Position numbers and translations under genes: made by a program. DNA of 63,839 nt, the filler included, from Aduncisulcus paluster (lineage: Eukaryota): the NCBI GenBank assembly GCA_024181965.1. It is 9 parts of 9 records of this genome, joined end to end, with 100 filler letters (N's around TTAATTAATTAA, not from the genome) between each part and the next. Parts side by side here need not be neighbours in the genome. Positions count along the whole stretch, not along the records: positions 1 to 11,106 come from BQXS01010048.1; positions 11,207 to 14,721 come from BQXS01010050.1; positions 14,822 to 19,303 come from BQXS01010051.1; positions 19,404 to 22,453 come from BQXS01010052.1; positions 22,554 to 30,772 come from BQXS01010053.1; positions 30,873 to 41,304 come from BQXS01010054.1; positions 41,405 to 53,078 come from BQXS01010055.1; positions 53,179 to 60,442 come from BQXS01010056.1; 1 more part is not named here. One strand, 5' to 3'. The notes beneath the pieces are model-generated. The model ran no database searches and was not told the origin of the DNA. It saw only the letters and a list, made by a program, of their open reading frames with translations. Positions 1,164-60,199 of the stretch are shown one piece after another. Numbering within the stretch: the stretch's first letter is position 1; every line of letters starts with the position of its first letter.

Positions 1164-2180
1164 TTCTTGTTATCTTTGTCCTTCGATGAATACTATTGGT
1201 GTCCTTTTGTCTTCTTACATGGTATATACCGTAGTTACCTCTATGTCATTCTATATTATCCTATGGATATTATCCTATGGATATTTGAGTGAATGGGAGT
1301 CTTCTGTATTGTACCTTTGCCATTATGTATCTAGATCTTATTATCATGTTATTAATATTAGATTATACTTTTATTTATTTAATCATAATCTCTTGTTTTT
1401 TTATTTATGAAATATATATAAAAACACGTGTACTATTCCTTCTTTACTATCCTTATTCAAGTTAAAGGATGAATTCCCAAGTGCTATAGCCCATTATTTT
1501 GTTTTATTTTATCAAGTTCGATGTCCTTTCTGAAGAATTTGTTTTGCTTATTCTTCATAATTCTTATTAAAATATATTTATTTATTTATCTACTCCGTAA
1601 CAATGCATTTCATATTGTTGCCACGTTCCTCTTCTCTCTCTCTCTCTCTCCTTTTTTTTTTTTTTTTTTAATTCTCTTTTCAAAACAATTATATTATAGT
1701 CACTTGGTGTTTCTTTACCTCTCTCTTTGCTCTTGGAGGTCGGTGGGTGATTTTTTTGTTCATTTTGCTTATTTATTTTGATTTGTGTTTCTCACAATGT
1801 TATTTTTAGAATAGTACAGTATAGAATCAAATAGAAGCAACATATGGATTTTTCTATGACCCTGTTCGACCATGATTAGAATTAGATCGTTGGATCAGCA
1901 TACTTTTTATTTTATTTTTTTACATTTTGTTATTTTGATTATTATTGCATGATATAAATTATATAATATTAAATATTTATCTGAATTATATCCTCCATTT
2001 TGTTCAACAGCATCTTTATTAGTAATAATATCGAAATAAATGTGTTCTTCATAAAGTGGTGCCAGTCAGCCAATAAAGGGCATATGTGAGACATTTTCTC
2101 ATATTTTCCCTTATCTATTCTTCAAAAAAATGAATCGATTAAACAAAATGATGATAAAACCAAGACTTGGTTACCAAGTT

Positions 2181-2663
2181 TCATGAGCCAATCTCAATGC
2201 GCTCTAAATATTTCAATCTGCATGCAGGACACACAATCATATCTTTTTGTGGTGATATTTCCATCTCAAATCCAATAATTTGTTCACAGAGACCCTTTGC
2301 ACAGGCACATCCACAAGGGGAATAGACAAAGAAAGGATTAGATTTAGATAAAACTGATTTGCTAAGTTCACATAGTATACCATGCTGAAAAACTTTAGAA
2401 TTAATTCGGATAACATTTTTTCTCGTTGAGATATGCGAAAATCTTAGAGGCATGGATTTATCAATCAAATTCTTTAATATAACATCATAACAAAATAAAT
2501 TTCCAAGTTTATCAACACAAATATTCCCTTCTTCAAGAGGTTTCCCACTAATAGAGCAGGTATATAACGATTGACCTTTAAAAACAGACTCGCCGAGTCT
2601 TTCTCTTATTTGTTGGACAACAACATCTCTTTTTGTTGCTATAGTTCCTCCATCTCCTCCCAT
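2181..2663 (-). CDS. RTF2: Replication termination factor 2 (Rtf2) RING-like protein, short form
   Basis: N-terminus MGGDGGTIATKRD matches the Rtf2 MG(C/N)DGG(T/S)IPKR signature; CSIS..PL, 'DKLGNLF', PCGC and CPAC motifs. Confidence 0.85.
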   Translation of the reverse strand: MGGDGGTIATKRDVVVQQIRERLGESVFKGQSLYTCSISGKPLEEGNICVDKLGNLFCYDVILKNLIDKSMPLRFSHISTRKNVIRINSKVFQHGILCELSKSVLSKSNPFFVYSPCGCACAKGLCEQIIGFEMEISPQKDMIVCPACRLKYLERIEIGS

Positions 2664-2779
2664 TTTAGTATTTTTATAGTAGAACGCGAGGAAAACATCA
2701 TCTTTCCGAAAAACATCTACTGTTTTTTTCTCTCCGTTATAACTCTTTTAATGTGCAAAATATTAGCGTATTTTATTGT

Positions 2780-4003
2780 TTATTTCAATATATGAGCTTC
2801 TCGTGCAATTCTGTAATAAATTTCACTTTTTCTTCTTTCTAATGAGCATAACTGTTCCAAATTTTCTACTAATTTATCTTTATGACAAATTTCATACTTA
2901 ATTAGAAGTTCAGATAAGAGCAATATGGACAATTTCGGCCATTTTGCAGAATCTTCCAATTTAATCAATTCTTCAACCATAGTCCAGAAAGAAGCAAGGA
3001 TCTCTGAACGAAAAGTATCCAAATTATCATTCCACCATTCTGCATCGCGCAATAACCACACAATAAATCTCCAAGAACTCTCATCATCCGGAAGCACATA
3101 AAAAGCTGCCTGAGAAAATTCATATTCAAGTTTAATTCGATCAGATATTACCTCAGTAAGCTTTATAATCATAGAATGATCGGATACAAGCTCAATAAAC
3201 TTAGATAATGGAGCAGAATAAGTTGGAATGAATAGATAATCATCATATCCACAAATCTCCAATAGCGAAGCCTTGAACAATAATTTAAGGGCACCAGACC
3301 GTCTATGCCAAGCAGAATGATTGCTAAAATTACTTTTAATCATGGATTGAGTGAATTCAAGATCAGAAAGAGCAACATCTTTTAACTCTGAACAATATGA
3401 TTCCCATGTGGTTGTTATTTGATCCTTATAGTGCAAATATATCTCATTTTCATACATTTTCCTTATTTCAGTTCGATAATTCCAGCAATGGAAGTTCCTA
3501 CCATCAACAGAGAGACACTTCGAGCACAAACTTATCTCATTTTCTAATATGTCACGAAATACAGTTCTTAGTGATTCTTTTACCGAGTGTGTTGCATATC
3601 TATTCCATAATGTTATGATTAAAAACATTCGATGATCCCACACAGGATATACTTTAGCATTTTTGGCAATAAAGGCTTCGGTAAATTTTAACTCTGAAGA
3701 TATTAACTCAGGAAGTAAAGAATATGTTTCGGACTCTTTTGATGATTCTTCCTCTTTATCTTTCTCATCTTTTTCAAAGTCTACTTCATCACGAAGCCTA
3801 GAAGAAATAGCATCCTTGCGATAATTCCAGAGTGAATAAAACTCCTTATTAAGTCCCAATACTGTTTTAGTGAGCATCAAAGTTTGATCATCATACTTTT
3901 TTGCGGCCTTTCTAGCGAAAACAAGCTTTACAAGCTTTCTGTATTTTGTGATGGTTTCTTGACTAACTTCAAAAGTTTTATCTCCTTTTTTAATTCCATG
4001 CAT
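2780..4003 (-). CDS. RABGGTA: Rab geranylgeranyltransferase (GGTase II) alpha subunit
   Basis: MHG start; prenyltransferase alpha repeats (FYSLWNYR, KVYPVWDHR, RNFHCWNYR, NFSNHSAWHRR, PDDESSW); 'AKWPKL' near the C-terminus. Confidence 0.9.
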   Translation of the reverse strand: MHGIKKGDKTFEVSQETITKYRKLVKLVFARKAAKKYDDQTLMLTKTVLGLNKEFYSLWNYRKDAISSRLRDEVDFEKDEKDKEEESSKESETYSLLPELISSELKFTEAFIAKNAKVYPVWDHRMFLIITLWNRYATHSVKESLRTVFRDILENEISLCSKCLSVDGRNFHCWNYRTEIRKMYENEIYLHYKDQITTTWESYCSELKDVALSDLEFTQSMIKSNFSNHSAWHRRSGALKLLFKASLLEICGYDDYLFIPTYSAPLSKFIELVSDHSMIIKLTEVISDRIKLEYEFSQAAFYVLPDDESSWRFIVWLLRDAEWWNDNLDTFRSEILASFWTMVEELIKLEDSAKWPKLSILLLSELLIKYEICHKDKLVENLEQLCSLERRKSEIYYRIAREAHILK

Positions 4004-6887: not shown

Positions 6888-7537
6888 TATTGGCAGAGCA
6901 AAAGTTAAACNNNNNNNNNNNNNNNNNNNNCTTCTAAACCAAAAAGATGCCCACTTTCTTCTTTGGATTGGAGAATAGGTTCCGAAATTACAACATGTTC
7001 ATTCTTTTCTTCACCTGTATCTTGAGATTCATTTCCAGTGACATCAACGTCAACAACATCACCATCTTCATATTCTAAACCAATCAAATCGAGATCAGAC
7101 ATTATTGGCAGAGCAAAAGTTAAACTTTGATTTTGTGTGCAAAAAGAATATAATAACCGCTTTTCAGCGAGAAAAACTGATGTCAATGTTTATGTTATTA
7201 TGATTCCTTGATTTATATATTTTATTTACCCTCACCCCGCATTAATTTTGAACAATTTGTCTCTGGGAAGAAATAGATGCGTTCCAAAATCAATTTCAAA
7301 GATATGTTTTGGATTCTTTTGCATGCGATAGCGGAATATATTCTATTTATCATTTTTTCTGTCAATGTGCTCGGTATTTCTCTTTTCTCATACTGCGGGT
7401 GATATGATAATATTTGAGCGTTTTATATAAATATTACATCTCACATCGTTTTATTTGTTTTTTATTTGACCTCAATCTTTCTTATTTCTGTGGAACGGCA
7501 TTTGTTCATTTCAAAAATCATCTGAAAATAATGATTC

Positions 7538-9377
7538 ATGACAAAAGATTTCGATTTGTGGATTCACTCTATGGCAAACAAATTCAAAAGAAGACAAAAG
7601 AAAGTATCAAAAGGACAAAAAACTCATCGAAGTTCACCTAAAGCGCCACAATCAAACAAACCTGCTCCAATTGACCAAAAAGCACAAGACACCGTATCAA
7701 GACCATTATCTTCACCTTATAAAGGGAAAATAAGAAAGAAATCTGGGTATACACCAAGAATATCAAAGCCACCATACACTGAAGAAGATATTTACAAATG
7801 CTGCGAAGAACTTCACTTGTCCAAACATCTTGTAGAGTTGGAAATAGCTACATACCGTACGAAAGTTCAAATGTCAGAATATGTAAGAGATGGCCTTGTT
7901 TCGTCCCATCGTCATCATTCTCTCTTGTATGATGATGCTCTTCAGTTCCACCTTCAAAAGGTCCATTCTGACCGCATCGAACAAGCTTTTTCTGACCATG
8001 ACGCTTGGAATTATCAGGAACTCCTATCTATGTCCGAAGAAGAAGACTATTGTGTCCTGGCCTCACCTGAAAAACCAGATATCGCTGAACTATTGGTTGA
8101 AAAAAAATCTGAAGCCAAAGATAGAATAAGAAAATTTCAGAATTATTATTCCACCATTCGGCAGGCCCGAGAGAAAACGTTACAAGCTAGAGCACAGTCA
8201 TCGAAACAAAAGAGTTCGTCATCACGTCTCATTGAGAAAAAAATTCGCTCACATGACCATCCAAGCCCTAAAGAAACTCCAGCCATTCCCACAGAAGGTG
8301 TGTTAACTGTGAAGTCGACACCATCCCCGATTCGTTCAAGAAAAGATCAGAAACATCCAAACCCTTTGAAGACTTCCACCATTGTCCCCACTCATAGTGT
8401 GGACAATCCTACTGATAAACGATATAGTACTGTAGATACGACGAAAGGAGATGTGTCGAGAGGTGGAGAGTCAAGGGCAGAAGATGACGAAGAAGCGAGT
8501 CATGCTCATTCAGAACAAAGTATGGGATCATCAGTGGGTCCAGCATCACATGCTCACTCTTCTTCTGATTCTATGGTATTCAAGGACGAAGTTGTTCGAA
8601 TCGATGAGTTTGCCGGAAAAGGCCAAGGAGGAATATCAGGCGATAAAACAGACACTGACCATATTATAACAACAATGATGTCACATNNNNNNNNNNNNNN
8701 NNNNNNCAAGGGCAGAAGATGACGAAGAAGCGAGTCATGCTCATTCAGAACAAAGTATGGGATCATCAGTGGGTCCAGCATCACATGCTCACTCTTCTTC
8801 TGATTCTATGGTATTCAAGGACGAAGTTGTTCGAATCGATGAGTTTGCCGGAAAAGGCCAAGGAGGAATATCAGGCGATAAAACAGACACTGACCATATT
8901 ATAACAACAATGATGTCACATTTGATTGATCCTATGGATTCTATCATTAAAACAAATCCGGATTTCGAAGCTGTTCAAGAAAGCATTGTTAGCGGGTTGA
9001 AGGCCAAATCTTTGTTTCAAAAATACTCTTATTTTCCATACAATGATGTAATTATTGAAATTCATGACCCTTTTGAAGCCACTGAAGTGTTTACGGACTT
9101 TATTCCTCCTCCGCCTCCAAGAATAATGAAACCCATGGATATTGCGATAAAATATTGTCAAAAGCACCATGGGTGTGTTCGAATCCGGGCAGGAAGATTC
9201 TCTATCTGGTTACCAAACACTGTTAAAAAAGCAATCATGAAACGTGAAGAACAAGAACTTGATGATACAGTGACTCGTTCTTCTCCTTCTGGGGAAACAA
9301 AAACCTTATCTATCTCCAGTCTTGTGGTCTTATTCATCATTATTTGTTCTTTATTGGTAAATATGTACGTAAAATAA
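7538..9377 (+). CDS. Uncharacterised protein with a C-terminal hydrophobic (tail-anchor-like) segment; split by an assembly overlap at 8687-8706
   Basis: ORFs 7538..8686 and 8757..9377 share the duplicated overlap and join into one frame once it is collapsed; the C-terminus SLVVLFIIICSLLVNMY is hydrophobic. Confidence 0.65.
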
Positions 9378-9851
9378 TGTCCTTTGAGATCATATTTTCA
9401 ATCCAGGATTTGTCTTGAAATTCGGGCGTTTAACTTGGTGAAAGAACAATTAGTGGTTAATTATAGCCTATGAATCACAATATTTCCTGATATTCAGGAG
9501 GTATATTTGATTAATATGTGTCAATCGGATTCCGATTGTTTCAATGGGTTCGACAGGGCAAAATTTATATTAAGATTATATTTTAAAATTTACAATGTAT
9601 TTCAATCAGATATAATTGTATAAACAATCATTTAAAAAATAGAATCATGCCTGAGATCATAGTCATGTGTTGTAACTAATCGTTGATATTTTTCGTTGGT
9701 TAAAGTCCGAAAATGGCTGTTAAATTGCATCTAAATAAATTCCGAAGTTAAATTTGCTTATTTATTTCAATTTCCATTACCTGCAAAAAATATCAACTCT
9801 TTCTCGCGAATTAAGAAAAATATCGAAGCTTCATAGTTTGTTTCCGCAATT

Positions 9852-11106: not shown

Positions 11107-11206
11107 NNNNNNNNNNNNNNNNNNNNNNNNNNNNNNNNNNNNNNNNNNNNTTAATTAATTAANNNNNNNNNNNNNNNNNNNNNNNNNNNNNNNNNNNNNN
11201 NNNNNN
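11107..11206. other. Artificial scaffold linker (N44-TTAATTAATTAA-N44); identical linkers at 14722-14821, 19304-19403, 22454-22553, 30773-30872, 41305-41404, 53079-53178, 60443-60542
   Basis: Eight identical 100-nt spacers, each with a central 12-mer that gives stop codons in all six frames. Confidence 0.97.
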
Positions 11207-13151: not shown

Positions 13152-13817
13152 TTCATTTCAAGTTTTTCTGCCTTTTTGTTTTTTTTTTTTTTATTTTTGT
13201 TGATTTTGTTGTTATTGTTTGCTTTTCCGTATTATATATATAGTGTACTATGTATCCATTATTTATGTATTTTTTCTTCTGTTGTTTTGTCTCTCTTTGC
13301 CTTTTCTTTGTTCTAATAATTGTTTGAGAAATTGGTTGGTCAACATTTATAATATTGTTCAATTCTTCTATCTTTCTACTTTAAGAAAGTCTTTCTTCTT
13401 GTTCCTCGTGATTTTATTATTATTAATTATTATTAATTATTATTTTATTATTATTAATTATTATTAATTATTATTTTATTATTGTTATTTCTATTGCAAA
13501 TAATTTCATTTTATATTGGTGAAATTTTGTCTTGACTTGTGCTTTTGTACTAAAGTTTAGTACTAACAATGTTTGTTCGACCTCAACCAAATTAATCTCT
13601 CCATCGTAATTTTCGACTATATATATATAATCCTATAATCTATTGAATAGATTCTATTCTAATTGAATTAATAAAAACTATAAACTAGAAAATTTCTGGG
13701 CTAGAAATCTTTGATTCTTCTCTTTAATCCGGTCTGCAACCCATTTTTTCTTCCTCAAAAGCACTAAAAATAGGCACTATATTTATATTTTGAATCTATA
13801 TTTAGGATTCTGAGTGA

Positions 13818-23500: not shown

Positions 23501-23780
23501 TTTTAGAAAGAATTTAATAAAAACTTCCTAATAATTTCCTTATGTATATATAGCGTTCACCAGTATTTTTCGAGCGGGGCTGAAAATTATTGGTAAAGAA
23601 CCTCAAGTTAAGCAGGCTGCTTCGTCATATTGAATTTTGTATTAATATTTATAGTGGAATAAATAATACGGCGAAACTTTCCTTGAAGGAAAACACCAAT
23701 CATATGTGAAATGATTTCAACTTGAAGTTGAAATTGCCTTGCCAATACTTCAGTGAAAGCTCATTTAAATCGATTTATTC

Positions 23781-44856: not shown

Positions 44857-45099
44857 ACTTTCGTCGTGTTGTGATGTTTTCCTTGGCTGGGTCCTCAGGG
44901 TTGACTAAAGTTGGTGAAAACATTGCCACACTCCTCAATGAGATCATTAAAGAGAAAAAAGAAGGTTCTCTCCCCTTGGAAAAGTTCCGTGCTCGTGTGA
45001 AGATGAGTGTTACTATCGCTATTCTGTCTGCCGAACGGTAAATCCAGCTTTTCCCGTGAATACTGCGAGAAAGGAACGCCGTTCCTTCTCAAACATACA

Positions 45100-45690: not shown

Positions 45691-47526
45691 GAAGAAGGCA
45701 TTGCTGATGAGGAGTTGATAGCAAGAAGAAGGGTGAGATCCACGATGCCTCTTGAAGTTTCAGAAGAGTGGTTCTATCAACAATTGGTAAAAACTATTAC
45801 CACTCATGCAAACTATCTCTTCAAGGTTTTGTTTGCAAGAGCTCACAACCCTGAACTTGAAACTCTTATGTTCAAGCATAGAGAATTTCTTCTTCCGTTG
45901 GCTTGGGTGACGAAGGTGATTAAAATTTAACATAGTCATCATTTTCTTTGCACTCATTACTTCCCTGCCCATCACAAGGAGATTCTTGAACTCTATGGGT
46001 GTGCAGCTAATATTGATTCTGATCCATATGAAGCCACAACTCTCAGCAGCCATGAAACGAGTTCAAAGGTGTGCTGAAGCTGCAAAAAACCAGGTGCGAA
46101 TGATGAAGGTTCTGAAGAATCATTCAGCGAGTTAAAGAAGGTTATTGAGGGCAAACTCGATGGAAAGAAGATGAAAATAATTTTACATATCGATGAGGCT
46201 CTGTCGTTAGATAGCAATTGTGCTGGTCCTGGTGATAAATTTGGGATTAGATTTGTGTTGATGCGCCAAGTGTTAATTGAAACTGCATGTCATTTANNNN
46301 NNNNNNNNNNNNNNNNCATATGAAGCCACAACTCTCAGCAGCCATGAAACGAGTTCAAAGGTGTGCTGAAGCTGCAAAAAACCAGGTGCGAATGATGAAG
46401 GTTCTGAAGAATCATTCAGCGAGTTAAAGAAGGTTATTGAGGGCAAACTCGATGGAAAGAAGATGAAAATAATTTTACATATCGATGAGGCTCTGTCGTT
46501 AGATAGCAATTGTGCTGGTCCTGGTGATAAATTTGGGATTAGATTTGTGTTGATGCGCCAAGTGTTAATTGAAACTGCATGTCATTTATGCCCAGATCCA
46601 GCTCAAATTAACCAATTCTTGTCGAAGGGATTACATACAAGATGATGAGCTTCTTTGTTTCTTTCCAGAGATTGCCATTTATAGCTCTTGTGATGTTCAC
46701 AAATCAAAGAGCAGGAGCTATTAGCAGTGTTATGCCTGGTAACATCACAAAAAACCAGGAAAACTCAACATTGAAAGAGGAAGAAAAATGAGTTCTAGTG
46801 GAAAAAGCAAATATGAGTTTGGAGATGACTGGATTTCCCTTTGAGACAGCTTGATTCTGTGGATCACCTCTCTAAGAAAGAGATATTACAAGCTTATTGG
46901 AGGTAAACATCCTGAAGTTCCACTGCACCCTATTCCTTTCTTTATTAAGTGAAGCTTCTCCCATCAAATGATGTTGTGGAATCACACCAACCACAATTAT
47001 AATCGAAAGGACCGTAGACCTCTCTGTTAGGTATAATAAGGAATGGAAATTCGTTGGTTTGATATTTTTCGTGCACACTGATCCAAGGATGGAAACGAAC
47101 ATCTAAAATTACAAGACAGATACACAGTGACCTTTTCAACAGTATTATCGATGACAATATTTTGTTCGACGAAGAGAGAAAAAGAAGATGCCCGACAACC
47201 AGATCTGTTTATGAGAGAGAGAGAGAATTGAAAAGGGCCTGTATACCAGTTTCTTTTTCTTCTGTCAGGGTTGGGACCAGACTGCGAAACACCCCCTATC
47301 CAATTTCCTATACCCCATTTCATATCTCTTTTGAGGCGCATCAGGTCGACCAAATTCTTCTTCGATTTGGTAATTCTTTTTTCACTTACACTGCCCCAGC
47401 AACAAACTACTCTCATAATTATGGTTTCATTTAAGATGTTTCTATATTATCCTATCTGGAAGTTTTGGAGCAATAGTAATAGTATTCTGTACAACACTAT
47501 ACCTTCCAATTCCACGATTCCTCTAA

Positions 47527-47574
47527 CCACCCCACCACCCCGCCACCCCACCACCCTACCACCCTACCACCCCA
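47527..47574. repeat. Six copies of the 8-mer CCACCC(C/T)(A/G); G-rich on the minus strand
   Basis: Read directly from the sequence. Confidence 0.9.
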
Positions 47575-47668
47575 CTGTTCCTGAAAGTTTATGTTTGAGC
47601 ATTTCTTATCTTGTTGACATAGGACAACACAATCATTCCTGTTTTGAACTCCAGATCCACTATTTTCT

Positions 47669-48960
47669 TCATGGGAATCCCCATGTCCCTAAGTGCTCCT
47701 CTAGAAGGGATACTCCAGAGCCTGAGTAACCAATGATAATACCTGAGCCGTTTGGGCCATACTTCTCCGATTTTTCATGGTGACGTTTCTCGAAGGAGAA
47801 CAGGGTTGTCATCCCCATGCATGACTGACACGTCCAACCAGAACGAGGAGTCTCCATCTTCAATTAAGATATCAACTCTCTGATCTTCACGATATGTGAC
47901 TTCTTCCCTTATGGAATGCTCTGGGAGGTAGGTTCTGAGTTCTGTCGTTAGGAGTGTTCGAATGTCGTGGTGTCTCTGCCTATATTGTGGCATTAGTTCA
48001 GGACATCCCCCTAATAAGTGGATCTGAGTGTTCTGGGCCTGGAAGAGAGAAGATGATGCGGGGAAAGGTCGGCAATATGTAAGGCTTCTGCATCTGATAC
48101 TGGACAGTTGGGGGAATGCATGGAGCAATCTTTTCAGGATTGGTCTGTTGAAGTAGTAAGGAGAGGCAGATTCAAGGGAGCTCGCTTTCCATGAACCAAT
48201 GACCATCTTTTGCTTCAGTGATGATAGTCTCGAATGAAATGTTCTCCAACCCAACCTTCTGATTGAAACTTTCGATATAAAAGTCAGTGTCTTCTCGTAA
48301 TTGTGAGTCCTGTTCTCCTTAGAGCTTGAATGCATGGGGTCCAGTTAATGTTTTTCAAGCGTTGTCTCGGTGCGTTGTCTTTCTTGCTATATCACCATTA
48401 TCAGTGAACAATACTTGGAGTTTTTCTCGTTCTTCATCCTCGTTAAATTCCATTTCACATCATTCCATGAAGTTTAGGAATGCTGCCTTGAGTGAGGGGT
48501 ATGACAGACTGTGTATTAATAGAAATATTCTATACATGTCCACCTCGATTGTTGCTTGTGCCAGTCCCAGTCCTCCATGTCGTTGTCATGCTATTGTGAA
48601 ACATTTCTCTGCATTCAGTGTGAAGCCACCAGCTTCCAGAGCAGCACACAATTCATTTGTAAGTGAGGTGAGGTTGGTTCTCGAGGTTCCAATCACTATG
48701 AGCTCTACTGGAGGAACAATGTCAAGGCAGACATTAAAGAGAACTGGGGAGATAGCATTTCCTTGTGCCATCCCTTTCAGTACAGATGGAGTTATCATGG
48801 ACCTAGATGATGGATGAGATAGACTGGGTTATGACCTCTTTTGAAGCTATGTGTATTATCTTCTCAATGATTTCTCTGAGGAGTGCATGACTAAATGATC
48901 CGTACGCATCAGTGAGGTCGAGGCATGCTGCTGGGTTTGATCCCAACCATTCCTGGAATG
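47669..48960 (-). mobile_element. Degenerate RLE-type non-LTR retrotransposon (RT plus restriction-like endonuclease)
   Basis: CLDLTDAYGSFSH (about 48890-48930), GMAQGNAISPVLFN and GFTLNAEKC (RT motifs); GGLGLAQ; then HLLGGC....RQRHH...RVDIL.....WLDVSV and a frameshifted EKSEKY (RLE). The YADD motif is missing and there are several frameshifts. Confidence 0.85.
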
Positions 48961-49248
48961 AAGCCTCTCTGATATCCTCCGATTAGACCGTGTGATGTGG
49001 AATAAGTCGTCAGTCTCCTTGCAATTACAGAGTAGAAGGCTCTCTGTGATGTGTTACTTAACTTGCATATTGGTCTCCATCTTACCTACGTGCTCTTGTA
49101 ATTATGGATCCCCAACGGATTAGCAATTTACATGTGAGCATCAGCAACCTTAATATAATAATATCTACCAAGAATACCCTGAGTAGCTGACTTTTATTCA
49201 TCGATTGCAATAGATGGGGAGTATAGTTATATATAGTAGGTAGGTATC

Positions 49249-51151
49249 CTATTTCTTTCGTGGAATTTTTTTTGTTTTCTTATCTTTTAATTCATATTCT
49301 TTTCTATATTTGTTGATTTCTTTCCTGCTGAGAGAAACTTTGAATATTTTATCAATAAAAATATCGGGTGAGATTGCACATTGCCTTGGGAAGTTCTGGA
49401 GGCATCGAATGGTGCCCTCAAAGCCAAGAGCAAGTATGCTTATCCCATCTTTTCCCCAAACTTCATCATTGGTCCCATAGTCATCGCAATCATGCAATGT
49501 ACAGTCGTGTTCTCCCTTGTCAATAACATGTACTCCATCCGGATCCTCCGACGAGTGACTCTCTTCCATTGTCCCAGAACTATGTCTCTCCTCACATTGG
49601 ACAGTTGAGTACATGGTCATCGGGGTGGGTGGAGCACTGCTTTGGGAGGCAGCAGAAAGCATATCAATATCACTAACATGTGGAGTAAGCGAACTGGAAT
49701 CGGGAACCATGGGAACAGTGCCATCAGCAATAGTACTAGACGTAGAGGTCGATATGGATGCATCAGGAGTGGTTTTGGAAACAATAATTGTCTTGATTGG
49801 GCTGGATGACTTCGATTTGGCCTTAATAGCTTGTTGCTCTTTCAAACGAAGTTTCCGCTTTTTTATCTCTTCTTCTTTCCTTTTCTTCTTCCATTTTGCA
49901 ATGGTCTTTTTATCTTTTAGTCCTTTTTGCATCTCTTTAAGAAGCATTAGAGCGACACGATATAATATCTTCTCACCTTCCACCATGAAACAATCAAGCA
50001 CACGAACGACAAGGGAGAAGGGAAGGGTGGACGTAAACAAGGTCATGAACCACGGGGCTGCAAAAAACGATGACTCAATATCAAGCTCTTTAAGGTGGGC
50101 GGACAGATCAGGGAAATGGTGGGCAACGAGTTGGTCAAGGATGTATTGCCGCTCCAAAACACCCCGAAGAGATGAACGGTAGATATCTTTCATCGATTCG
50201 AGGACTCTAACAAACAACCAAAAGGCCTCTTCTTCACTCATATACATAAGGAACACAGAAGCTATAAATCCCATTCCTTGGCAATATCCGGTCTCCCGAT
50301 CATGAATACTATATGCCTNNNNNNNNNNNNNNNNNNNNTGACTCAATATCAAGCTCTTTAAGGTGGGCGGACAGATCAGGGAAATGGTGGGCAACGAGTT
50401 GGTCAAGGATGTATTGCCGCTCCAAAACACCCCGAAGAGATGAACGGTAGATATCTTTCATCGATTCGAGGACTCTAACAAACAACCAAAAGGCCTCTTC
50501 TTCACTCATATACATAAGGAACACAGAAGCTATAAATCCCATTCCTTGGCAATATCCGGTCTCCCGATCATGAATACTATATGCCTTAAGAAGTCGGAAC
50601 AATTTCTCCATGCCCATGTGTCGACGACCAACAAGAAATACGTTCTGTGGGAAAGTTCGACCAATATCTTTGATAATAGTTATTTCCGCTGACGGATTTG
50701 ATCCAACAAGATATTTTGACCAGTATATATTATCTTTTATATCTCTGGATTCACAATATTTTTTAAAATCACAATCAGAAGAGCGAATTCTTTGCCAAAA
50801 GACTCCACGGAACTTACTGGGAACTCCTTGACGAACAATTGTCTTTAATTTGTTTCTTTGCTTTTCATGAAACCAAAATTTGTCATTTTTAAAGATAATA
50901 TCGGCCCACTGTTGGATTTTTTGATTGGCTTGAGATTTCTTCGAACTCCCACAATGAGACTGTTTAGTATCCTTATCAAGGCTTTTTCCACTCCCAGCTG
51001 GCGTACTTGGAGAAAAACATCTCTTAGATTCTTCTTCTTCTGTTGAAATAAACCCATACCGATCAGGATGCGATTGGGCAGGAAGGGGCGGGACACAAGA
51101 CAAAACATACTTCAATTCTTTCTTTAAAGTTGGAGTTGAAGCATGATGCAT
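49249..51151 (-). CDS. TBC-domain Rab GTPase-activating protein
   Basis: GVPSKFRGVFW, IIKDIGRTFP (R finger), GYCQGMGF (Q finger) and WFMTLF...VRVLDCFMVEG; one frame after collapsing the overlap at 50319-50338. Confidence 0.92.
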
Positions 51152-52664
51152 TTTATAAAAGTTGAGTTGTTATCAAAGTATCACTTAATTGGAAAAGTGG
51201 AAAATCCGACTCCCTTCGGTATAAATTCGTTCGAATGATGACTTGAGAGAATTAATCACGATTTATTTCAAAGGGAAAAATAAACAAAACGTGATATTTA
51301 ATGGGTCTGCTAACCTTTTTGTAGTTCTTCGATCCTGAGTTATACACCGACAAGAAGATACAATAATTGGATACAATAAACTGATTATCATATTATTATT
51401 CGTAAAATGTATCTTATTCTTGCAACTTTATCAGATGGCCCCGAGCACAGAAAAACAAGCTAAATAGGGCAGCAATATCATATAAAATAACCATATTTGT
51501 AAGAAAGAATAGAAAGTGTAGAAATGTCTGATATTTTTTGATATTGAACCCTCCCTTTTCTCAGCCACCGCCGGTGGAAATTTTTTTTTGTTGTTTTTGT
51601 TTTTTATATAAAAATGAAAGAAATGTACAGTGCAACCACCGTACAGGGGGGACCCCCACGGATGGGGGTAAAAGGGGGGAATTTTACTCATAGATAGATA
51701 GGAGATTGGTGAAGTGAAGAATAAAAAGAATAGACTTCATAGGACCAGACCCAGTTCTAGTTCTCTTCTTATGTTTCAAGGAGAAGAGAAAAGCTTGGAT
51801 TCGGCAAAACAAAGAAAAGATCACGAATCGAGAATCACCATCCAAGAATAAGAAGATGTGACACACAGATTGGGGGAACAGCATTGATATAATTGATGTT
51901 ATTGATGTGTTATTCGAGATTCAAATGAGTAAAGCGAGGGGCAGTTGTGGCATTTTCTCAATTATTTTCAGAGACAATGGGTGGAAACCAGGAGCAACGA
52001 ACAGAACCAGAGTGTTTTTAGTTTGAAGCAGTATTTTATGGAGTAGTATGGCAAATATCAAACGTTTGAGTTCAATTTTATGACAATAAAAAGAACAATA
52101 ACGTGTCAAAAGGTTCGAGAGCCAAACAGATATCATTGACACAATAACAAGCAGTAGAGAGAATAATACCATGGACTTCGAGTTGCAATGACTTTAAGCT
52201 ACATTTCTATCATGATACTCGAGGAATATCGGGGAAAATATTCTTAAGACGTTGTACAATGAAGATGTTATGAATGACACAGTATAAAGAGGAATCAAAT
52301 CAATAAATCCATGCCATTTGCTCCACAAAATGTTTTCGGGATGAAATTATACCTTTTATCATGTTTTATCCTCTAATTCTCATTGATAAAAATTTCATCC
52401 CTAGAAAGAACATAAAACATCATAATTCGAAGTTTAGAATTGAATATTTCAGTTAACAGTAATCAGCAACAATACATTTTGGTGGGAATCACTTTCAATA
52501 GAATTGTATATTGTCAGAAAGATCTAAGATCTCAGATCGAAAGGCTTACGTTGACAGATCGTCGGAGCGTCTTTATTTATGTTCAAATAAATTTGTGTAT
52601 TTATTTTATAGTGGTGCATCCTGAATATTTTTTTTATGGGTCATCAGAGACCTATGAATTCAAT

Positions 52665-53078
52665 TCACTTTGCTTTACTTTTCGATACCTTTAAGGCTCT
52701 TTTCTTAACATTCTTTTTCATTTTCCCTTTTCTTTTTTCACGATTTGCTTCCTTTTGTAATTTTTTAAACTCTTTCCACTCTTCTTTGCTCATATCTTTC
52801 CTACTGATTGTTATAGCACCTTCCTCTTCCTCCTCTTCCTCCTCTTCCTCTTCCTCTTCTTCCACCTTCTCACTTTCCTCTTTCTCTTCCTCTTCTTTCT
52901 CCTTTCGATCTTCAACTAAATGCACCAAATTCATATAAATGTCCGAAGGGAGTTGGAATATTTTTTCTCCATACTCTGTTAGAGATCGTGGAATATGTGA
53001 GTGCAAGAAAAAGTCGACATCTTCCTCTTCAGCTCTTTCGGTGGAATATCTATATACTTTCGATATCAAAACATCATC
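52665..53078 (-). CDS. RIO1: RIO1 kinase C-terminal tail (5' part lost at linker)
   Basis: FLHSHIPRSLTE and KEEWKEFKKLQKEANREKRKGKMKKNVKKR match the RIO1 C-terminal motifs. Confidence 0.75.
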   Translation of the reverse strand, partial: DDVLISKVYRYSTERAEEEDVDFFLHSHIPRSLTEYGEKIFQLPSDIYMNLVHLVEDRKEKEEEEKEESEKVEEEEEEEEEEEEEEGAITISRKDMSKEEWKEFKKLQKEANREKRKGKMKKNVKKRALKVSKSKAK

Positions 53079-54474: not shown

Positions 54475-54979
54475 TTCCTCTTCTTTTTACTCCTGGAATA
54501 ATATTACCAATCAGTCTAAAATGTCTCTATTTCTTCGAAAACTGAAAAATTCCATGTTTATTTACGGATAAACTTCTTAATTTTGCGGAAAATGGTCTAT
54601 ATTGGGTTTAAACGGGACTCAATTCCTCTGTAAACAAAAATGGTTCTTTGAACCTGGAAAATTCAAAATCTTAGAAATTTAAATGGTTTATTTTAATCTT
54701 TCATTCTTAGAGATGAATGTTTGTACGATAAGTTGAACAAAAAAACACTTGGATCGAATATGTAATATTATTGAGTGAAATTCACTCTTGTCATCACTAA
54801 TAAAATTATTTCAATCAAAACTATTGCCTTTGCTTCTTCTTTTCCTAATGAAACAGCCAAGAATATTTGCAAAGAATCAATATAAAGTCCTATGGTGAGA
54901 TCCAAGAGCAATTCGTACATAATTCTTTTTCCGGCATTCAATTGGTATCGCGCGAATTGAATATAATCAAATTAATTAA

Positions 54980-56281
54980 TTAGAGATCTTCCTTACTCAG
55001 ATCTTCGACATTTTGATAATCGTATTCTTCTTCTTCTTCAAAATGTTCCCCGTGTTCGTGATCATGTTCGTGATCATGTTCGTGATCATGTTCCTCGTGA
55101 TGATGTTCGTGATCTTCACCTACAAAAGGTATCTCGATGGGAAGAACAGACCCATCAAATATCCCCTCTAAGGCAATACTAATCTTCTCAACCATTCTAT
55201 TTTGGGCATCTTCAGAGCTCACGTCTTCATCTGAAAGAAGACCAGGGAATGACCAGAAGATGTTCTTTGAAGGATATACGCACACGATACCGGGTATTTC
55301 TTCAGGTGTAAGATCAAATAAGGCAAGATCGCCGGAATAAACATCAAAATCCATAAATGAGAATGTAAAGATGGAATCTTCCATAATTGCAAGCTCGTGG
55401 AGTATTCTAACATAATTCAGCCATTTAGCATTGGAATCTTTGTGAAGGGCAAGGATAACAATGGGGATTTCGGGGAGAATAGCAAACTCATGGAAATTCA
55501 TCGCGGTAAGTTCCACTATAGAAGGTCGATAGTTATCAAAAATAAACTTCTCAAGCTCATTTTCACCTCCCCTTGCAGTGAATTCGATCACTTTCCCCTC
55601 TTTAATGCAATAAAATCCATGAGTAAGCGTTGCAAGTGGGGTTTCAAGTTCAAATAATAATTCTGGAGCTATCACACCAAATTTAGTCAAACCTTTCCTA
55701 AATGTCGCCGCAATTTCGATTGCAGCTTGCTCTTCTTTGGAAGGATCAACAACAACGAAGGAAGGAAGTATAGGATGGAGGAAATTATGTTGGTTTTCAA
55801 GAGAAACTGGAACAAGCGTATTGCCTTCCATTTGATCAATCCAATCGATCAAAACATCTTCAGAATTAGGATTTTCCTCGAAATTGTAAACATGCCCATC
55901 AAGCGTATAAAGAGAAATGGTTGGGAGAGTTGTGATTCCATAATGACGGCATAATACAGATGAATCGCAGTTAATAGCAAGGAATGTTATGTTTGTATAA
56001 TAATTTGAGGCAGATTCAAAGATAGGCAAAAATGAGCGGCAATGAGGACACCAATCAGCATAGAACTATGGAGAATAAGAAAAATAAACTAATTGATCCT
56101 AAAAGGAAGAAATATGATCTTTAATAATTGATAAAAACCAACATACCTTAATAATAGTGTCAGACTCGTTCATAATTGAGAAAAGAGTGTCTTCATCTGT
56201 AATTTCAATTACTTCTCCAAATGAAGAATAAACCAGAGAACACAAGAGAATGATAATGGCAAACAAAGAATGATTGAGCAT
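54980..56281 (-). CDS. Protein disulfide isomerase/thioredoxin-domain ER protein; exon 1 56281-56147, intron 56066-56146
   Basis: Signal peptide; splicing GTATGT...TAG gives IIK-FYADWCPHC; His/acidic tail ending KEDL. Confidence 0.88.
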
Positions 56282-56814: not shown

Positions 56815-59577
56815 ATGGGTCGTACGAAACCAAAAATACTTTCTTCAGAAACTAACGTTTTACTATCAGAAATCTCTTGTTATTGTATTCTTGATCGAAT
56901 GGGGGACGTAGAATCGCAGCTTGTTACACTTAAAGGAAGTGAAGACTTTTGTGTTGTATTTGAAAACTTTTTCAACAATTGGTATAGGTATCGCCAATCA
57001 TTCCGATCTCACGTGAAGCTACATTCCAAGATCACCCCTGAACGATTTCCTCGTCCTATTTGTAAGGTTTATTTTGATGATTCCTACCTTGATGATCATA
57101 AATTAGAGAGAAGAGAATGTGGTTATGTCAGAGAATACTGTGTTGGAGGAAATATTGTAGAATTTGCAAAGTCTTGGTGTAGTGATGGAAAGTATTGTGT
57201 GGATTTTGAAGATGATAAGGAAGAAGAAAGCTCAAGTTCTTCTATTGATTCATGGGCTGACTATCATTCAAGTTCTGACTCTGATTCAAGTTCTGACTCT
57301 GATTCAAGTTCTGACTCTGAGAGTTCATCCCACAAGCACTTTTCATTCTACGATCTGAAAAAAATGAACCCTGTTAAATTGAGTTCTGTCTGTGTTGAGA
57401 TGATTGAGTGTCTTGATGATATATTATTGGCAAAGGAGGAATTTGTTTATCGAAATATTGAACCTGAAAGCTTTCTTGTTAGAGTTTGTCCTGATTCTAA
57501 CAAATGTTCTGCTGTTCTCATAAGTCATAATTTTGAGCCTATAGAAGAAGATGAATGTCTACCTTCTCTTGAATGTGATTTTGCAAAGATAGAGGCGATC
57601 GTGGTTGCGAACTTGCACCAGCCTCCTGAAGTTTTTTTGGAAGGTTTATTCGATAGACCTTCAGATGCATACGCAGTTGGTATATCTATCTTATCACTAT
57701 TTTATGGTGAAAATCCTTTGATAAATGATCCAATATTGCAAAATTTTCTCATTCATCAGAAGTATAGACAATCCAAGGATGAAGGAATTCAAGATTTGAG
57801 TAAGAGACGGGAAAGATGGAGAAGATTTCAGAGTGAAATATTTGATGGTTTACGTATTATAAAACATATCATCGAAGAAGGTCGTACACCTAAGCTCTCT
57901 TCATCTCCTCTCTTCAGATCCCTCAATACCATTGATGGTGGAAAATATGAGCCTGTTTTCAATTGTTTGAATGAAATATTTGAGGGTTTGACGAAATTTG
58001 ATCCTTATGACCGGATGAGTATTCATAATGCTCGTAAGAAGGTTCAGTCAATCAAACATCTCCTTCCAAGCTTTGGCAAAGGATGGGAAGCTCCCAAAAT
58101 TGAGGATGTCATTGTTGAGAAACTTGAGAAATACCGTCCAATTGATTCATCTGAGGACGAAGATTCATGGCCATTTGATAGTATTAATTCATTGGATAAT
58201 TCCCAACCTGAATCCACCAAATTAATTCTCAAACCTGCCGAAACCTCATCAAAACCTCCTCCAACGCTCTTCCCCGAGAAAGAACAGGATCTTTCATCCA
58301 AAACTGTAGTTCCCAAATCTCCACCACAACCTTCACCACAACCATCACCCAAACCTTTTCATGACCCTCCCATGCCCCTCCCCAAAACCTTGACCTCCTC
58401 TTCTTGTCTCACTCCTCTTTGTATCATTGGGAGAGGAGGCTTTGGTGTTGTCATCCTCACTCGTGTTGAATATCCAGGTACATCGTTCCCTTCATCCTTG
58501 TGTGCTCTGAAGTGCATGAAGAATCTTGAAACAAGTGCAAACAATGCCAAATGTGTGAAGAACATGAAGAAAGAATTCGCTCGTCAAGATCGTCTATATT
58601 CTATTCCAGCCATCCAAAGCTGTGTTCCCCGTCCTCTGCACATTCTTGATCTGCTTGACTCTGATCAGAAAGGGACGTTAGGGATCATGATGGAGTTCTG
58701 TCGAGGTGGCAATGTCATGGAGTTTGCGATGAGTTGGGCTGTTGATCTCTCTAAATGTGACCCTTCTTTTGATGATGAAGAGGACCTTGTGTATGATCCT
58801 GTGAAGATTGCATCCTTGTGTGTTGCCATCATCGAGTGTGTCTCTGATGTGTTTACTGCAAAGGAGCAACTTGTTCATCGCGACATTAAACCTGATAACT
58901 TCCTTGTTCGGTATGATGCTTCGAAAGGAGAGTGTAAGGTTGTTCTCGGAGATTTGGGTCTTGTGAAGATTCGTGATACAATGTCTCAGCTATCGTCCTT
59001 CAACACATCAGAGCATTCCACAAAAGACACTGAATCAGGTTCTGCACATGTTTCATTTTCATACAAACCATCGATTGTGGGCACTCTGTGTTACAATGCT
59101 CCTGAGAGTTTGAAGAATGCGTTATATACCCAACGCAGTGATGCATGGGGAGTTATTCTGACGATCTGGTCCCTCTTCAATAGGATGCAGCATCCATTCA
59201 TGTCTCATCCTGCAATCGCTGGAATTCCTGCTAGTGACGATTCTGACTTGAAATTGTGCTCCAGACTAAGTTATCTTGTGTCCAAGCCAGAATGTCTCCC
59301 ACAACTCCTCGATAGTGATATATTCCGTGACCTTGAAACTCTCGATGGTGGGAAGTACAAGGAAGTGTATAAAGTGTTTCTTGAGGTATTTGCTGGACTC
59401 TTGAACCCAGACCGTTTCAAACGAATGATGATCCAAGAAGCCCGTGCATTGACCGATAAGATCAAACATTTGCTCCCTGATGTTGGAGAAGGGTGGGAAT
59501 GTCCACCTCTCGAGGAGTACATTGAATGTCAGCTTGAAGAGTATGAAGGAGAAACGGGTGAACGCTACATCAAATAA
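56815..59577 (+). CDS. Tandem pseudokinase plus Ser/Thr protein kinase (lineage-expanded family)
   Basis: The C-terminal domain has IGRGGFG, ALK, HRDIKPDN, DLG, GTLCYNAPE and SDAW. The N-terminal paralogous domain has EYCVGG, YRNIEPES and SDAY but no G-loop, HRD or DFG. Confidence 0.9.
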   Translation: MGRTKPKILSSETNVLLSEISCYCILDRMGDVESQLVTLKGSEDFCVVFENFFNNWYRYRQSFRSHVKLHSKITPERFPRPICKVYFDDSYLDDHKLERRECGYVREYCVGGNIVEFAKSWCSDGKYCVDFEDDKEEESSSSSIDSWADYHSSSDSDSSSDSDSSSDSESSSHKHFSFYDLKKMNPVKLSSVCVEMIECLDDILLAKEEFVYRNIEPESFLVRVCPDSNKCSAVLISHNFEPIEEDECLPSLECDFAKIEAIVVANLHQPPEVFLEGLFDRPSDAYAVGISILSLFYGENPLINDPILQNFLIHQKYRQSKDEGIQDLSKRRERWRRFQSEIFDGLRIIKHIIEEGRTPKLSSSPLFRSLNTIDGGKYEPVFNCLNEIFEGLTKFDPYDRMSIHNARKKVQSIKHLLPSFGKGWEAPKIEDVIVEKLEKYRPIDSSEDEDSWPFDSINSLDNSQPESTKLILKPAETSSKPPPTLFPEKEQDLSSKTVVPKSPPQPSPQPSPKPFHDPPMPLPKTLTSSSCLTPLCIIGRGGFGVVILTRVEYPGTSFPSSLCALKCMKNLETSANNAKCVKNMKKEFARQDRLYSIPAIQSCVPRPLHILDLLDSDQKGTLGIMMEFCRGGNVMEFAMSWAVDLSKCDPSFDDEEDLVYDPVKIASLCVAIIECVSDVFTAKEQLVHRDIKPDNFLVRYDASKGECKVVLGDLGLVKIRDTMSQLSSFNTSEHSTKDTESGSAHVSFSYKPSIVGTLCYNAPESLKNALYTQRSDAWGVILTIWSLFNRMQHPFMSHPAIAGIPASDDSDLKLCSRLSYLVSKPECLPQLLDSDIFRDLETLDGGKYKEVYKVFLEVFAGLLNPDRFKRMMIQEARALTDKIKHLLPDVGEGWECPPLEEYIECQLEEYEGETGERYIK
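57267..57320 (+). repeat. Three copies of an 18-nt coding repeat (TCAAGTTCTGACTCTGAT; SSSDSD)
   Basis: Read directly within the kinase gene. Confidence 0.85.
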
Positions 59578-60199
59578 GTGCAGAGTTGAGGTTGTGTGTT
59601 TGTTGTTCAAGTTGATAATGGAGGGGATCGTGATTTGGATTCCTTGATATTGTATCTGTATTCAAAATGTACTTGCAAGTAAATTACTTGGTATTGGTGA
59701 CCATATTCCGAATAAAATGAAATGAAATTCCAAGACTTCCTGTCATCATAAAACAGACTACCTCAAGCAGTGGCTTGGTATTTGTGTTCATATGGAACAA
59801 TTGATCAAGTGTGATCAAGAATTGAGGCAACTTATCCCATGTCATGAGTTTTACCGGTAACGAGTGAACTTTCTTTTGGAAAAGTTTCTCGGATCACAGA
59901 AATAATAGAAATTCAAGAAAGATTTTTATTGGAGAAATTGAATCTCAAAGAACCCAATAGACATCGTGTTAGTATGATGGTATTACAATGTTGTTTATTT
60001 ATTATTGACAGAAACTATTATTATTATTTATTATTTTGAAGTTATCATCTTATTATATTAAAGGATTAAAAATGTTTTATTTTTTGGTTCCGGTTTGGTT
60101 TCAAATCCAAAAACTGGGAATTTATATTTTATTTCAAAATAGTAAATTTGCTCCAAGCATAAATTCTGTAGAACAGCTAACAATAATATTATTGAACAA

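Follow-up and report, generated by a model that had tools for sequence, protein, structure and literature searches.

What is written between the closely packed genes of a protist when a geometry recurs there and a sequence does not? The question is raised by a 63,839-nucleotide (nt) stretch of Aduncisulcus paluster DNA, joined from nine scaffold records of assembly GCA_024181965.1 (the whole stretch is henceforth the window), in which perfect inverted repeats with mutually unrelated arms recur around a single central base (spacer 1, henceforth odd palindromes). The initial annotation had listed 16 of them just downstream of stop codons and had proposed triloop RNA hairpins or DNA cruciforms acting in termination or 3' processing, with footprints of hairpin-opening transposons as an alternative. 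We find that odd palindromes with G/C-containing arms are in clear excess outside open reading frames (ORFs) and that they accumulate on the 3' sides of genes, and we tentatively read them as excision scars of hAT-type transposons.

Odd palindromes exceed chance expectation

We counted maximal perfect inverted repeats with spacers of 0-10 nt and compared the counts with those from 200 dinucleotide-preserving shuffles in 100-nt blocks. All palindrome statistics come from ~61 kb of the window. Linkers were dropped and, at a later stage, duplicated overlaps as well, the latter being stripped only where a simple suffix-prefix match detected them, and 61,350 unique bases were left; ORFs of at least 100 amino acids (aa) define the ORF class. 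The window is not one molecule, and consists of 18 ACGT segments whose joints are either 20-N gaps or artificial 44N-TTAATTAATTAA-44N linkers. The TTAATTAATTAA linker is itself palindromic and was excluded from the repeat counts (window 11107-11206 and seven other 44N-12-44N joints).

Each of the 16 listed palindromes is perfect where it had been placed, and the comparison with composition-matched shuffles, a check that the initial annotation had proposed, bears out the excess. With arms of at least 6 nt, 52 spacer-1 repeats were observed against 26.0 in shuffled DNA; with arms of at least 7 nt the figures are 20 against 7.5, and with at least 8 nt 9 against 2.1. These counts were reached in none of the 200 shuffles at any of the three arm thresholds. 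The other spacers between 0 and 10 lie near expectation, the exception being spacer 9 at the threshold of 6 nt only (30 against 18.9, reached in 1 of 200 shuffles). The spacer-1 excess is found outside ORFs only (35 against 12.2, compared with 17 against 14.2 in ORFs), and there it follows the content of the arms: palindromes with at least three G/C pairs number 14 against 1.3 and those with two G/C pairs 8 against 1.8, while AT-only arms (12 against 8.4) show no significant excess. The G/C-containing odd palindromes outside ORFs, 22 against ~3.1-3.3 expected, represent a ~7-fold excess, and in the G/C classes no other spacer in 0-7 departs from expectation. Spacers 4 and 5 show a ~2-fold excess with AT-only arms, and a control with mirror repeats, which are symmetric without being complementary, gave no more than a broad ~2-fold excess at spacers 0, 1, and 3, which is typical of low-complexity DNA.

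The observation is thus confirmed, and it is stronger than a reading by eye could show. The list of 16 was real throughout but incomplete, having overlooked the palindromes at 2158-2172, 13383-13397, 13637-13653, 23707-23719, 29820-29832, 30075-30087, 42728-42744, 48948-48960, and 51565-51577. The accompanying description also holds: the palindromes lie on several independent scaffolds (five of the nine linker-separated scaffolds carry them), many are G/C-rich within AT-rich DNA, and geometry rather than sequence recurs, given a spacer of exactly 1 and mutually unrelated arms.

Palindromes accumulate on the 3' sides of genes

The closeness to stop codons that had been noticed by eye withstands counting. 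Among the 22 G/C-containing non-ORF palindromes, 19 lie at most 263 nt downstream of a stop codon, a zone that takes up 33% of non-ORF positions (P ~4e-7), at distances from 9 to 263 nt. The 22 are spread over 11 intergenic gaps, 10 of which hold a gene 3' end. Gaps containing a 3' end (12,965 nt) carry 20 palindromes and 5'-only gaps (7,654 nt) carry 2; since the other spacers pooled divide 23 to 16 between the same two classes (Fisher P = 0.009 against spacer 1), the 3' bias is specific to spacer 1. The palindromes therefore do track 3' sides and are scarce at 5' sides. The stricter claim that divergent regions hold none stands only in part: 5'-only gaps are indeed poor in palindromes, but there are exceptions, namely an AT-only palindrome with 6-nt arms at 7116-7128, in a region that had been called empty, and the two G/C-containing palindromes at 51565 and 52520, in a gap that is divergent on the ORF map.

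Coverage of gene ends is partial. Of the 25 gaps in which a gene 3' end lies, no more than 10 have a G/C-containing palindrome, and counts per gap run from 0 to 4. Among the 15 that lack one are every tandem gap of 45-133 nt and nine others of at least 338 nt. On the scaffold at 22554-30772, all four well-defined tandem genes carry 2-4 palindromes in their 3' flank. Those in tandem gaps stand, in addition, 110-480 nt upstream of the start codon that follows.

Such a distribution brings in the possibility that the palindromes are selected, sequence-independent signals situated ~50-250 nt past the stop codon and beyond the cleavage site, where they would serve polymerase II termination or insulation, either as nascent-RNA hairpins or as symmetric DNA sites; the model for such an element is the giant-virus 'hairpin rule'. 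The concentration near stop codons, the spacer-1-specific split between the two classes of gap and the loaded 3' flanks of all four tandem genes argue for it. So do the G/C-richness in AT-rich DNA and the minimum arm of 6 nt, hence the stability, of the palindromes, and there are precedents in giant-virus palindromes (PMC4402537) and in the short-spacer inverted repeats of yeast 3' flanks (PMC2908449), as far as the cited parts of these papers go. Against it, the empty gaps include the very tandem gaps of 45-133 nt in which insulation should matter most, several palindromes stand in one flank and overlap in chains, and the distance from the stop codon varies across the whole range given above. 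We regard a selected termination or insulation signal as rather unlikely, and the anatomy of the palindromes bears further on it.

The anatomy of the palindromes argues for copying

The excess sets in abruptly at arms of 6 nt. When only arms with at least one third G/C pairs are considered, those of 3, 4, and 5 nt are at expectation (132 against 137, 11 against 14, and 9 against 6.1), and those of 6, 7, 8, and 9 nt number 9 against 2.3, 4 against 0.3, 2 against 0.1, and 1 against 0.0. The edges are sharp, with 39 of 176 pairs complementary past the first mismatch (0.22, background 0.25-0.28), and G.T pairs are not favoured at the palindrome boundary (3 of 22). Decayed copies with one mismatch show no excess (2 against 1.5) in a test of limited power, for which ~2-4 extra matches were expected; the edge test is the stronger of the two. 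The central base is G or C in 12 of the 22, and the pair beside the centre reads purine-N-pyrimidine in 16 of the 22.

Palindromes also overlap one another. Six pairs of centres lie within 15 nt, against 0.13 in shuffles (maximum 2), and two G/C-rich islands, at ~29110-29190 and ~30050-30115, are made of back-to-back palindromes. Direct repeats are enriched only 1.3-1.9-fold with no preferred gap, and those with gaps of 0-2 nt are at expectation. The neighbourhoods of the 22 palindrome loci hold no sequence common between them, and a dispersed element family behind the palindromes was rejected on this ground.

These properties bear on whether the palindromes were selected to fold. A 1-nt loop cannot form and the pair beside the centre stays open, so that selection for folding should enrich spacer 3 equally and favour loops of 3-5 nt; spacers 3-5, however, have no excess in the G/C class, and a folding signal leaves unexplained why spacer 1, and not 0 or 2-5, is enriched there. 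The stems that remain after a triloop are only 5-9 base pairs (bp) long, with neither G.U extension nor a longer imperfect stem. Perfection right up to the single central base thus points to copying rather than to selection for pairing, and the RNA hairpins or cruciforms that had been proposed for termination or 3' processing are not favoured, a verdict to which the partial coverage of gene ends and, as weak evidence, signs of upstream cleavage at two genes (see below) contribute. It must be said for a termination function that perfect, sharp-edged palindromes with no decayed copies detected are also what purifying selection would leave.

Two features of known RNA elements were sought around the palindromes. 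A T run after a G/C-rich stem, as in intrinsic terminators, follows only 51565-51577 and is found in no other palindrome flank; the segment 51565-51600 resembles a bacterial intrinsic terminator and lies in a 1.5-kb gap that holds no ORF of at least 100 aa. The search for small RNA genes returned no tRNA and three weak Rfam matches (E 0.42-0.84), none of them on a palindrome.

A reading as hAT-type excision scars

If copying made the palindromes, which process places exactly one base at the centre? We think it probable that the palindromes are not a selected structure but scars, left by DNA being copied or by a hairpin process of some kind. Within this wider class we favour hAT-type excision, a reading that we put forward as tentative. 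Excision of hAT-type transposons is the only documented process with a built-in single-base centre, the nick in the DNA flanking the element being offset by one nucleotide. Footprints of hAT elements (Ac/Ds) carry palindromic insertions around a single base that is the complement of the base adjoining the element, with palindromic arms of up to 20 nt in budding yeast and a canonical target duplication of 8 bp (PMC5873905), and hAT, MULE, and Transib transposases form hairpins on flanking DNA that are opened by the host (PMC5499845); both statements follow the cited parts of these papers.

Applied to the window, a hAT-type transposase would close the broken end of the flanking DNA into a hairpin with one unpaired tip base. 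Host enzymes would then open the hairpin by a nick several nucleotides from the tip, and once unfolded and rejoined, the end would bear an inverted copy of the adjoining 6-10 nt, a palindromic addition centred on the complement of the base that had adjoined the element. Scars of this kind would survive where DNA is dispensable, from a gene's poly(A) site to the transcription unit that follows, and would be lost from coding and promoter DNA. We infer the hairpin intermediate, the involvement of a transposon, the microhomology joining described next and the reason for the 3' location, which may be insertion preference or selection.

A specific layout follows if neither copy of the 8-bp target duplication has been lost. 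In that case the overhangs would be complementary, and a microhomology join would yield duplication, reverse complement, and duplication in 22 nt, made up of seven duplication bases, the 8-nt reverse complement and the last seven bases. This layout, two odd palindromes with arms of at least 7 nt and centres 7 nt apart, is present at 2158-2179 and at 13638-13659 and arose in 0 of 300 shuffles. Scans for the corresponding layouts of other duplication lengths found none for lengths 7 or 9-12 and one, against 0.25 expected, for length 6. A termination signal offers no functional rationale for these two 22-nt zig-zags.

Other properties agree with hAT scars. Spacer 1 is the only spacer in excess, as a single-base-centred insertion requires, and alternative repair routes do not predict it. 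Arms are unrelated, neighbourhoods share no sequence, ORFs show no excess, and only 10 of the 25 gaps that hold a gene 3' end are affected. The overlapping chains, including the four centres at 26268-26289 and the five 11-nt copies at 41860-41960, look like repeated events at hot spots, and sharp edges together with the lack of detectable decayed copies fit recent, discrete events.

A number of results weigh against hAT excision. Pfam scans of 30 ORFs in the 61 kb found no hAT or other transposase, and terminal inverted repeat (TIR) searches of the same 61 kb found no TIR element with an 8-bp duplication. The transposon footprints named as an alternative in the initial annotation are the best fit to the geometry, but no transposon was found in the window. 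For the one candidate ORF, 43708-44856, neither a homologue at E <= 0.001 nor a matching solved structure was found. Remnants of at least 5 nt of a second duplication copy occur at 5 of the 21 palindromes outside the zig-zags, against ~2.6 in controls, and most scars would need to have lost one flank. The ordinary footprint additions of 1-5 nt are not in excess, arms of 3-5 nt and direct repeats with 0-2-nt gaps both being at expectation. Some 20 young scars in ~13 kb would imply very heavy recent excision activity, and the arms are richer in G/C than their surroundings, which would not be predicted if random local sequence were copied. That the palindromes crowd within 263 nt of stop codons is expected for a function, whereas scars need an extra assumption to account for it, and purifying selection would explain just as well why no decayed copies were detected.

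Several candidate elements were considered and set aside. The TIR-like pair 26168-26189 / 26298-26319 has no target duplication, and the multicopy stretches beside palindromes contain no element with TIRs and an 8-bp duplication. For ORF 43708-44856 (382 aa), a role as transposase is supported by weak leads only, a sub-threshold Plavaka match and a weak resemblance to Plavaka/RAG1 RNase-H-like features; the scaffold around it (41405-53078) contains many short, broken-looking ORFs. An 89-nt difference from a paralogous contig at 29757-29845 has a 5-nt microhomology at its ends and no duplication, and looks like a deletion. Helitron-like 3' hairpins were also set aside: in the few flanks viewed by eye, no terminal motif stood at the expected distance. 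Finally, the possibility that a palindromic insertion truncated the Rtf2 ORF, and so created the pattern of palindromes after stop codons, was rejected, as no frame runs past the stop.

Possible break repair without a transposon

Scars could also arise without any transposon. In template switching, a 3' end is extended by copying back on its own strand or on the sister strand, by fold-back or snap-back synthesis or by quasi-palindrome correction, at breaks that would be frequent in termination zones. Short templated inverted duplications at breaks are known, mostly below 14 bp in yeast (PMC11724301), extension of stem-loops through DNA polymerase theta (Pol theta) offers another route (PMC11292364), and a yeast study proposed error-correcting switching for over-perfect repeats (PMC2908449), all according to the portions cited. 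The overlapping chains look like repeated switching. However, template switching starts from microhomology with multi-nucleotide loops and predicts no strict 1-nt spacer: in the cited passages, Pol theta inverted insertions in Drosophila favour microhomology of 1-3 bp across a 6-nt loop (PMC11292364) and a yeast fold-back system has a 41-nt loop (PMC11724301). In the window, spacers 4-7 of the G/C class are at expectation and the accompanying direct templated repeats are barely enriched, nor would two exact layouts at a 7-nt step, with none at other sizes, be expected. Such repair, by either of these routes, is in our judgement an unlikely source of the palindromes.

Independent contigs and transcript ends

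We compared the scaffold at 22554-30772 with contigs that were built independently of the window's assembler from four public runs, X1 to X4. X1 has flat depth and is DNA-like, whereas X2, from the same sample, ranges in depth from 58 to 742,000 and is RNA-like; that X2, X3, and X4 are RNA is only a guess, and X3 and X4, which bear another label, cover no palindrome. Contigs of X1 and X2 show 26147-26288, 29124-29179, and 30073-30111 without any difference from the window. One X2 contig contains the joint 29712>29789, with GT..AG ends on the minus strand, and continues through 30073-30111; the joint is a spliced intron. It corresponds to a 76-nt GT..AG intron at 29713-29788 (minus strand) immediately upstream of the start codon of the REEP gene, and the exon upstream of it runs back through ORF 30216-30560. 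The transcript may be a read-through or a long-leader transcript.

Because the independent contigs are identical, an assembler artefact is excluded and an amplification artefact is unlikely. An origin in amplification, library preparation or assembly had to be weighed, given the perfect, sharp-edged, and undecayed appearance of the palindromes and given that X1 and X2 come from one sample, with no independent sample covering a palindrome. Against this, DNA-like and RNA-like contigs agree, one of the latter joining a splice and 30073-30111, and no known artefact predicts absence from ORFs together with a link to gene 3' sides. Moreover, long ORFs of up to 1,304 aa are intact and no G/C-containing palindrome stands at a segment end. 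An artefact is therefore highly improbable.

Transcript ends were looked for in relation to the palindromes. In 7 of 24 genes AATAAA lies no more than 50 nt past the stop codon, as in 2780-4003 and the phospholipase B (PLB) gene, where it follows the stop directly. This placement suggests that some genes, at least, have a canonical poly(A) signal and very short 3' untranslated regions. An X3 contig on PLB stops at 23761, which is 14 nt beyond the post-stop AATAAA and 27 nt before the nearest palindrome. For REEP, AATAAA lies 33 nt past the stop and a contig break hints at cleavage near 29235, at least 56 nt before the palindromes. Both transcripts may thus be cleaved upstream in an ordinary way, with the palindromes ~25-150 nt further downstream and outside the mature mRNA; this is weak evidence, and it counts against a termination function acting through 3' processing.

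Possible protein-binding sites

Another reading is that the palindromes bind dimeric proteins which regulate the next gene downstream. Two palindromes (29124-29142 and 30073-30085) contain TGACTCA, which we take to be a site of the bZIP type, and those at 23610 and 26276 share a 9-nt core. The position of tandem-gap palindromes upstream of the next start codon would suit such regulation. Yet the 22 sites hold at least 15 unrelated cores, and by our estimate the shared cores are about what chance gives for 231 pairs. The palindromes are common in convergent gaps, which are free of promoters, and rare in divergent ones, and perfect symmetry over 13-21 bp is unusual for binding sites. We think it very unlikely that the palindromes are sites of this kind.

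Relation to known systems

In mechanism the palindromes come closest to the hAT footprint and in function to the giant-virus hairpin rule, and the closest genomic precedent is a survey of inverted repeats in yeast. Footprints of Ac/Ds and Hermes, in which hairpins on the flanks give rise to palindromic P-nucleotides, share the single central base, the copying of arms from adjoining DNA and the lack of relation between sites; the arm lengths in the window are within the yeast range, and two loci fit an 8-bp duplication. Unlike the published footprints, which are mostly additions of 1-5 nt, the window shows a very high density and a tie to gene 3' sides, with no element or transposase seen and the second duplication copy mostly missing.

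As far as is known, the giant-virus hairpin signal is near-universal at viral gene 3' ends, whereas presence at nearly every gene end is not found here (10 of 25 gaps). According to the cited parts of the viral study, polyadenylation in giant viruses takes place at palindromes whose sequence is not conserved, with RNase III-like processing (PMC4402537). The system (Mimiviridae, Pithovirus, and others) resembles the window in being defined by geometry, downstream of genes, in AT-rich compact genomes and scarce between divergent genes. It differs in that the genes here belong to a cell and one spliced intron is seen among them, that stems are far shorter and that the gene coverage is partial; the strict 1-nt spacer is not reported in those parts of the viral study, and cleavage here apparently falls upstream, after AATAAA.

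In Saccharomyces cerevisiae, Strawbridge et al. 2010 found intergenic inverted repeats enriched in the order divergent < 5' tandem < 3' tandem < convergent, with spacers 0-10 enriched in 3' flanks only and repeats over-perfect, and, in the parts cited here, left the choice between mutation and function open (PMC2908449). Intergenic enrichment, randomness in coding DNA, a 3' side above the 5' side, over-perfection and overlapping clusters are common to both genomes. The yeast effect is modest (12.7% overall) and extends over spacers 0-10, in contrast to the ~7-fold excess at spacer 1, with G/C arms only, in the window. Pol theta snap-back and yeast fold-back products likewise consist of short inverted copies of neighbouring sequence at repaired breaks, with multi-step patchworks possible; in the passages drawn on, their loops are set by microhomology, 6 nt being favoured, unlike the single central base here. 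A multi-nucleotide loop is not seen in the window, where the spacer is strictly 1, and direct repeats are only slightly enriched there.

New are the strict single-base spacer, the restriction to G/C arms, the ~7-fold effect and the two layouts that fit 8 bp. In a literature search, supplements not being covered, we met with no cellular eukaryote for which an excess of palindromes specific to spacer 1 had been described. If the palindromes are scars, they form an unusually dense, readable record of hairpin-type DNA breakage and of hairpin opening and end joining in a deep-branching protist; the long palindromic additions and microhomology joins would then suggest repair without the classical hairpin-opening route, and the scars would show where a compact genome tolerates mobile elements. 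If they are functional, they would be the first cellular gene-end signal set by geometry and not by sequence, with a bearing on how polymerase II stops between close genes. An improbable but far-reaching version of this is that a compact cellular genome uses symmetric odd palindromes of 13-21 bp, just past the poly(A) site, as termination or insulation elements that are read at the DNA level or are made and maintained by an enzyme. Such an enzyme, perhaps domesticated and hairpin-forming, would have the single-base centre as its signature of writing or reading, and the giant-virus hairpin rule would thereby have a counterpart in a cell. Any genome can be put to the spacer-1 test, which is simple and decisive enough for that, and the mutation-or-function question raised in yeast has been open since 2010.

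Genes and features of the window

The window contains closely packed eukaryotic genes, among them those for Rtf2, prenyltransferase alpha, PH, RRM, PLB, a DBP7-like DEAD-box helicase, REEP/TB2-DP1, RabGAP-TBC, and a protein kinase, and its longest intact ORFs reach 1,304 aa. The closest protein relatives are ~35% identical, and the DBP7-like protein has no match above ~37% identity; neither a protein scan nor an exact 50-nt word revealed relatives in metagenome contigs. The palindromes and related features are compiled in the following table.

Table. Odd palindromes and associated repeats in the window, by window coordinates
Feature	Coordinates	Structure	Setting and remarks
Zig-zag, 22 nt	2158-2179	2158-2172 and 2165-2179, both odd with 7-nt arms; centres 7 nt apart	8-bp-duplication layout; starts 2 nt past the stop of Rtf2-like ORF 2181-2663 (minus strand)
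Odd palindrome, 17 nt	9522-9538	8-nt arms, 4 G/C pairs	153 nt past the stop of ORF 8757-9377 (+)
Odd palindrome, 15 nt	13383-13397	7-nt arms	Convergent gap 13152-13817
Odd palindrome, 17 nt	13547-13563	8-nt arms	Convergent gap 13152-13817
Zig-zag	13637-13659	13637-13653 (8-nt arms) and 13645-13659 (7-nt arms); centres 7 nt apart; 22-nt core 13638-13659
Odd palindrome, 13 nt	23610-23622	6-nt arms	Probable PLB cleavage site on one side, conserved region upstream of multicopy gene 23066-23500 on the other
Odd palindrome, 15 nt	23678-23692	7-nt arms	96 nt past the PLB stop
Overlapping odd palindromes	23707-23734	23707-23719 (6-nt arms) and 23714-23734 (10-nt arms); centres 11 nt apart	X3 contig ends ~27 nt before, at 23761
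Odd palindrome, 17 nt	26147-26163	8-nt arms	234 nt past the DBP7-like helicase stop; X1 and X2 contigs show it unaltered
Chain of four overlapping odd palindromes	26263-26294	Centres 26268, 26273, 26282, 26289; arms 5, 5, 6, 5	Includes 26276-26288
Odd palindrome, 19 nt	29124-29142	9-nt arms, 6 G/C pairs	First block of island ~29110-29190, downstream of the REEP gene
Odd palindrome, 15 nt	29165-29179	7-nt arms	Island ~29110-29190
Odd palindrome, 13 nt	29820-29832	6-nt arms	Closer to the REEP 5' side; start codon 116 nt away
Two overlapping odd palindromes, 13 nt each	30073-30085 and 30075-30087		Island ~30050-30115; within the X2 contig bearing the splice joint
Odd palindrome, 13 nt	30099-30111	6-nt arms	Island ~30050-30115
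Five copies of an 11-nt odd palindrome	41860-41960	Both orientations, partly tandem, period 11	3' end of ORF 41863-42477
Odd palindrome, 17 nt	42728-42744	8-nt arms, AT-rich (1 G/C pair)	Outside ORFs
Odd palindrome, 13 nt	48948-48960	6-nt arms	Convergent gap 48818-49248
Odd palindrome, 13 nt	51565-51577	5 G/C pairs, then A3T9	Gap divergent on the ORF map
Three tandem copies of a 7-nt unit	52520-52540	Self-complementary hexamer core	Odd palindromes are a by-product of the tandem repeat
Odd palindrome, 15 nt	54773-54787	7-nt arms	200 nt past the stop of ORF 54980-55831 (-)
Odd palindrome, 15 nt	59676-59690	7-nt arms	106 nt past the kinase ORF stop; another inverted arm copy precedes

The convergent gap with four odd palindromes also contains an AT-only tandem repeat at 13400-13490. 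At 63544-63562, an 823-aa ORF contains an odd palindrome of 19 nt (9-nt arms) that leaves its frame unbroken; by our estimate, ~0.1 palindromes of this arm length are expected by chance in ORFs.

Each of the 20-N gaps (6911-6930, 8687-8706, 17895-17914, 34047-34066, 36039-36058, 37591-37610, 43421-43440, 46297-46316, and 50319-50338) has 195-370 nt of identical sequence on either side. The flanks thus represent overlapping contigs left unmerged, and some features are doubled as a result, for example 37477-37489 and 37795-37807.

The independent contigs brought further differences to light on the scaffold at 22554-30772. At 23812, in the C-terminal coding part of the phospholipase B gene, the contig of the DNA-like run is 2 nt shorter, and the RNA-like run matches the window. 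Over the segment 22554-23649, the DNA-like run is 12-37 times as deep as over single-copy DNA, and contigs diverge at 23476 and 23593. A multicopy gene family seems to be present here, its members having in common the 5' part of ORF 23066-23500 together with ~95 nt upstream. At 22939-23052, within the 3' flank of this ORF, a 16-nt AT-rich word occurs four times in alternating orientation, giving longer hairpins whose loops measure 7-9 nt and 79 nt.

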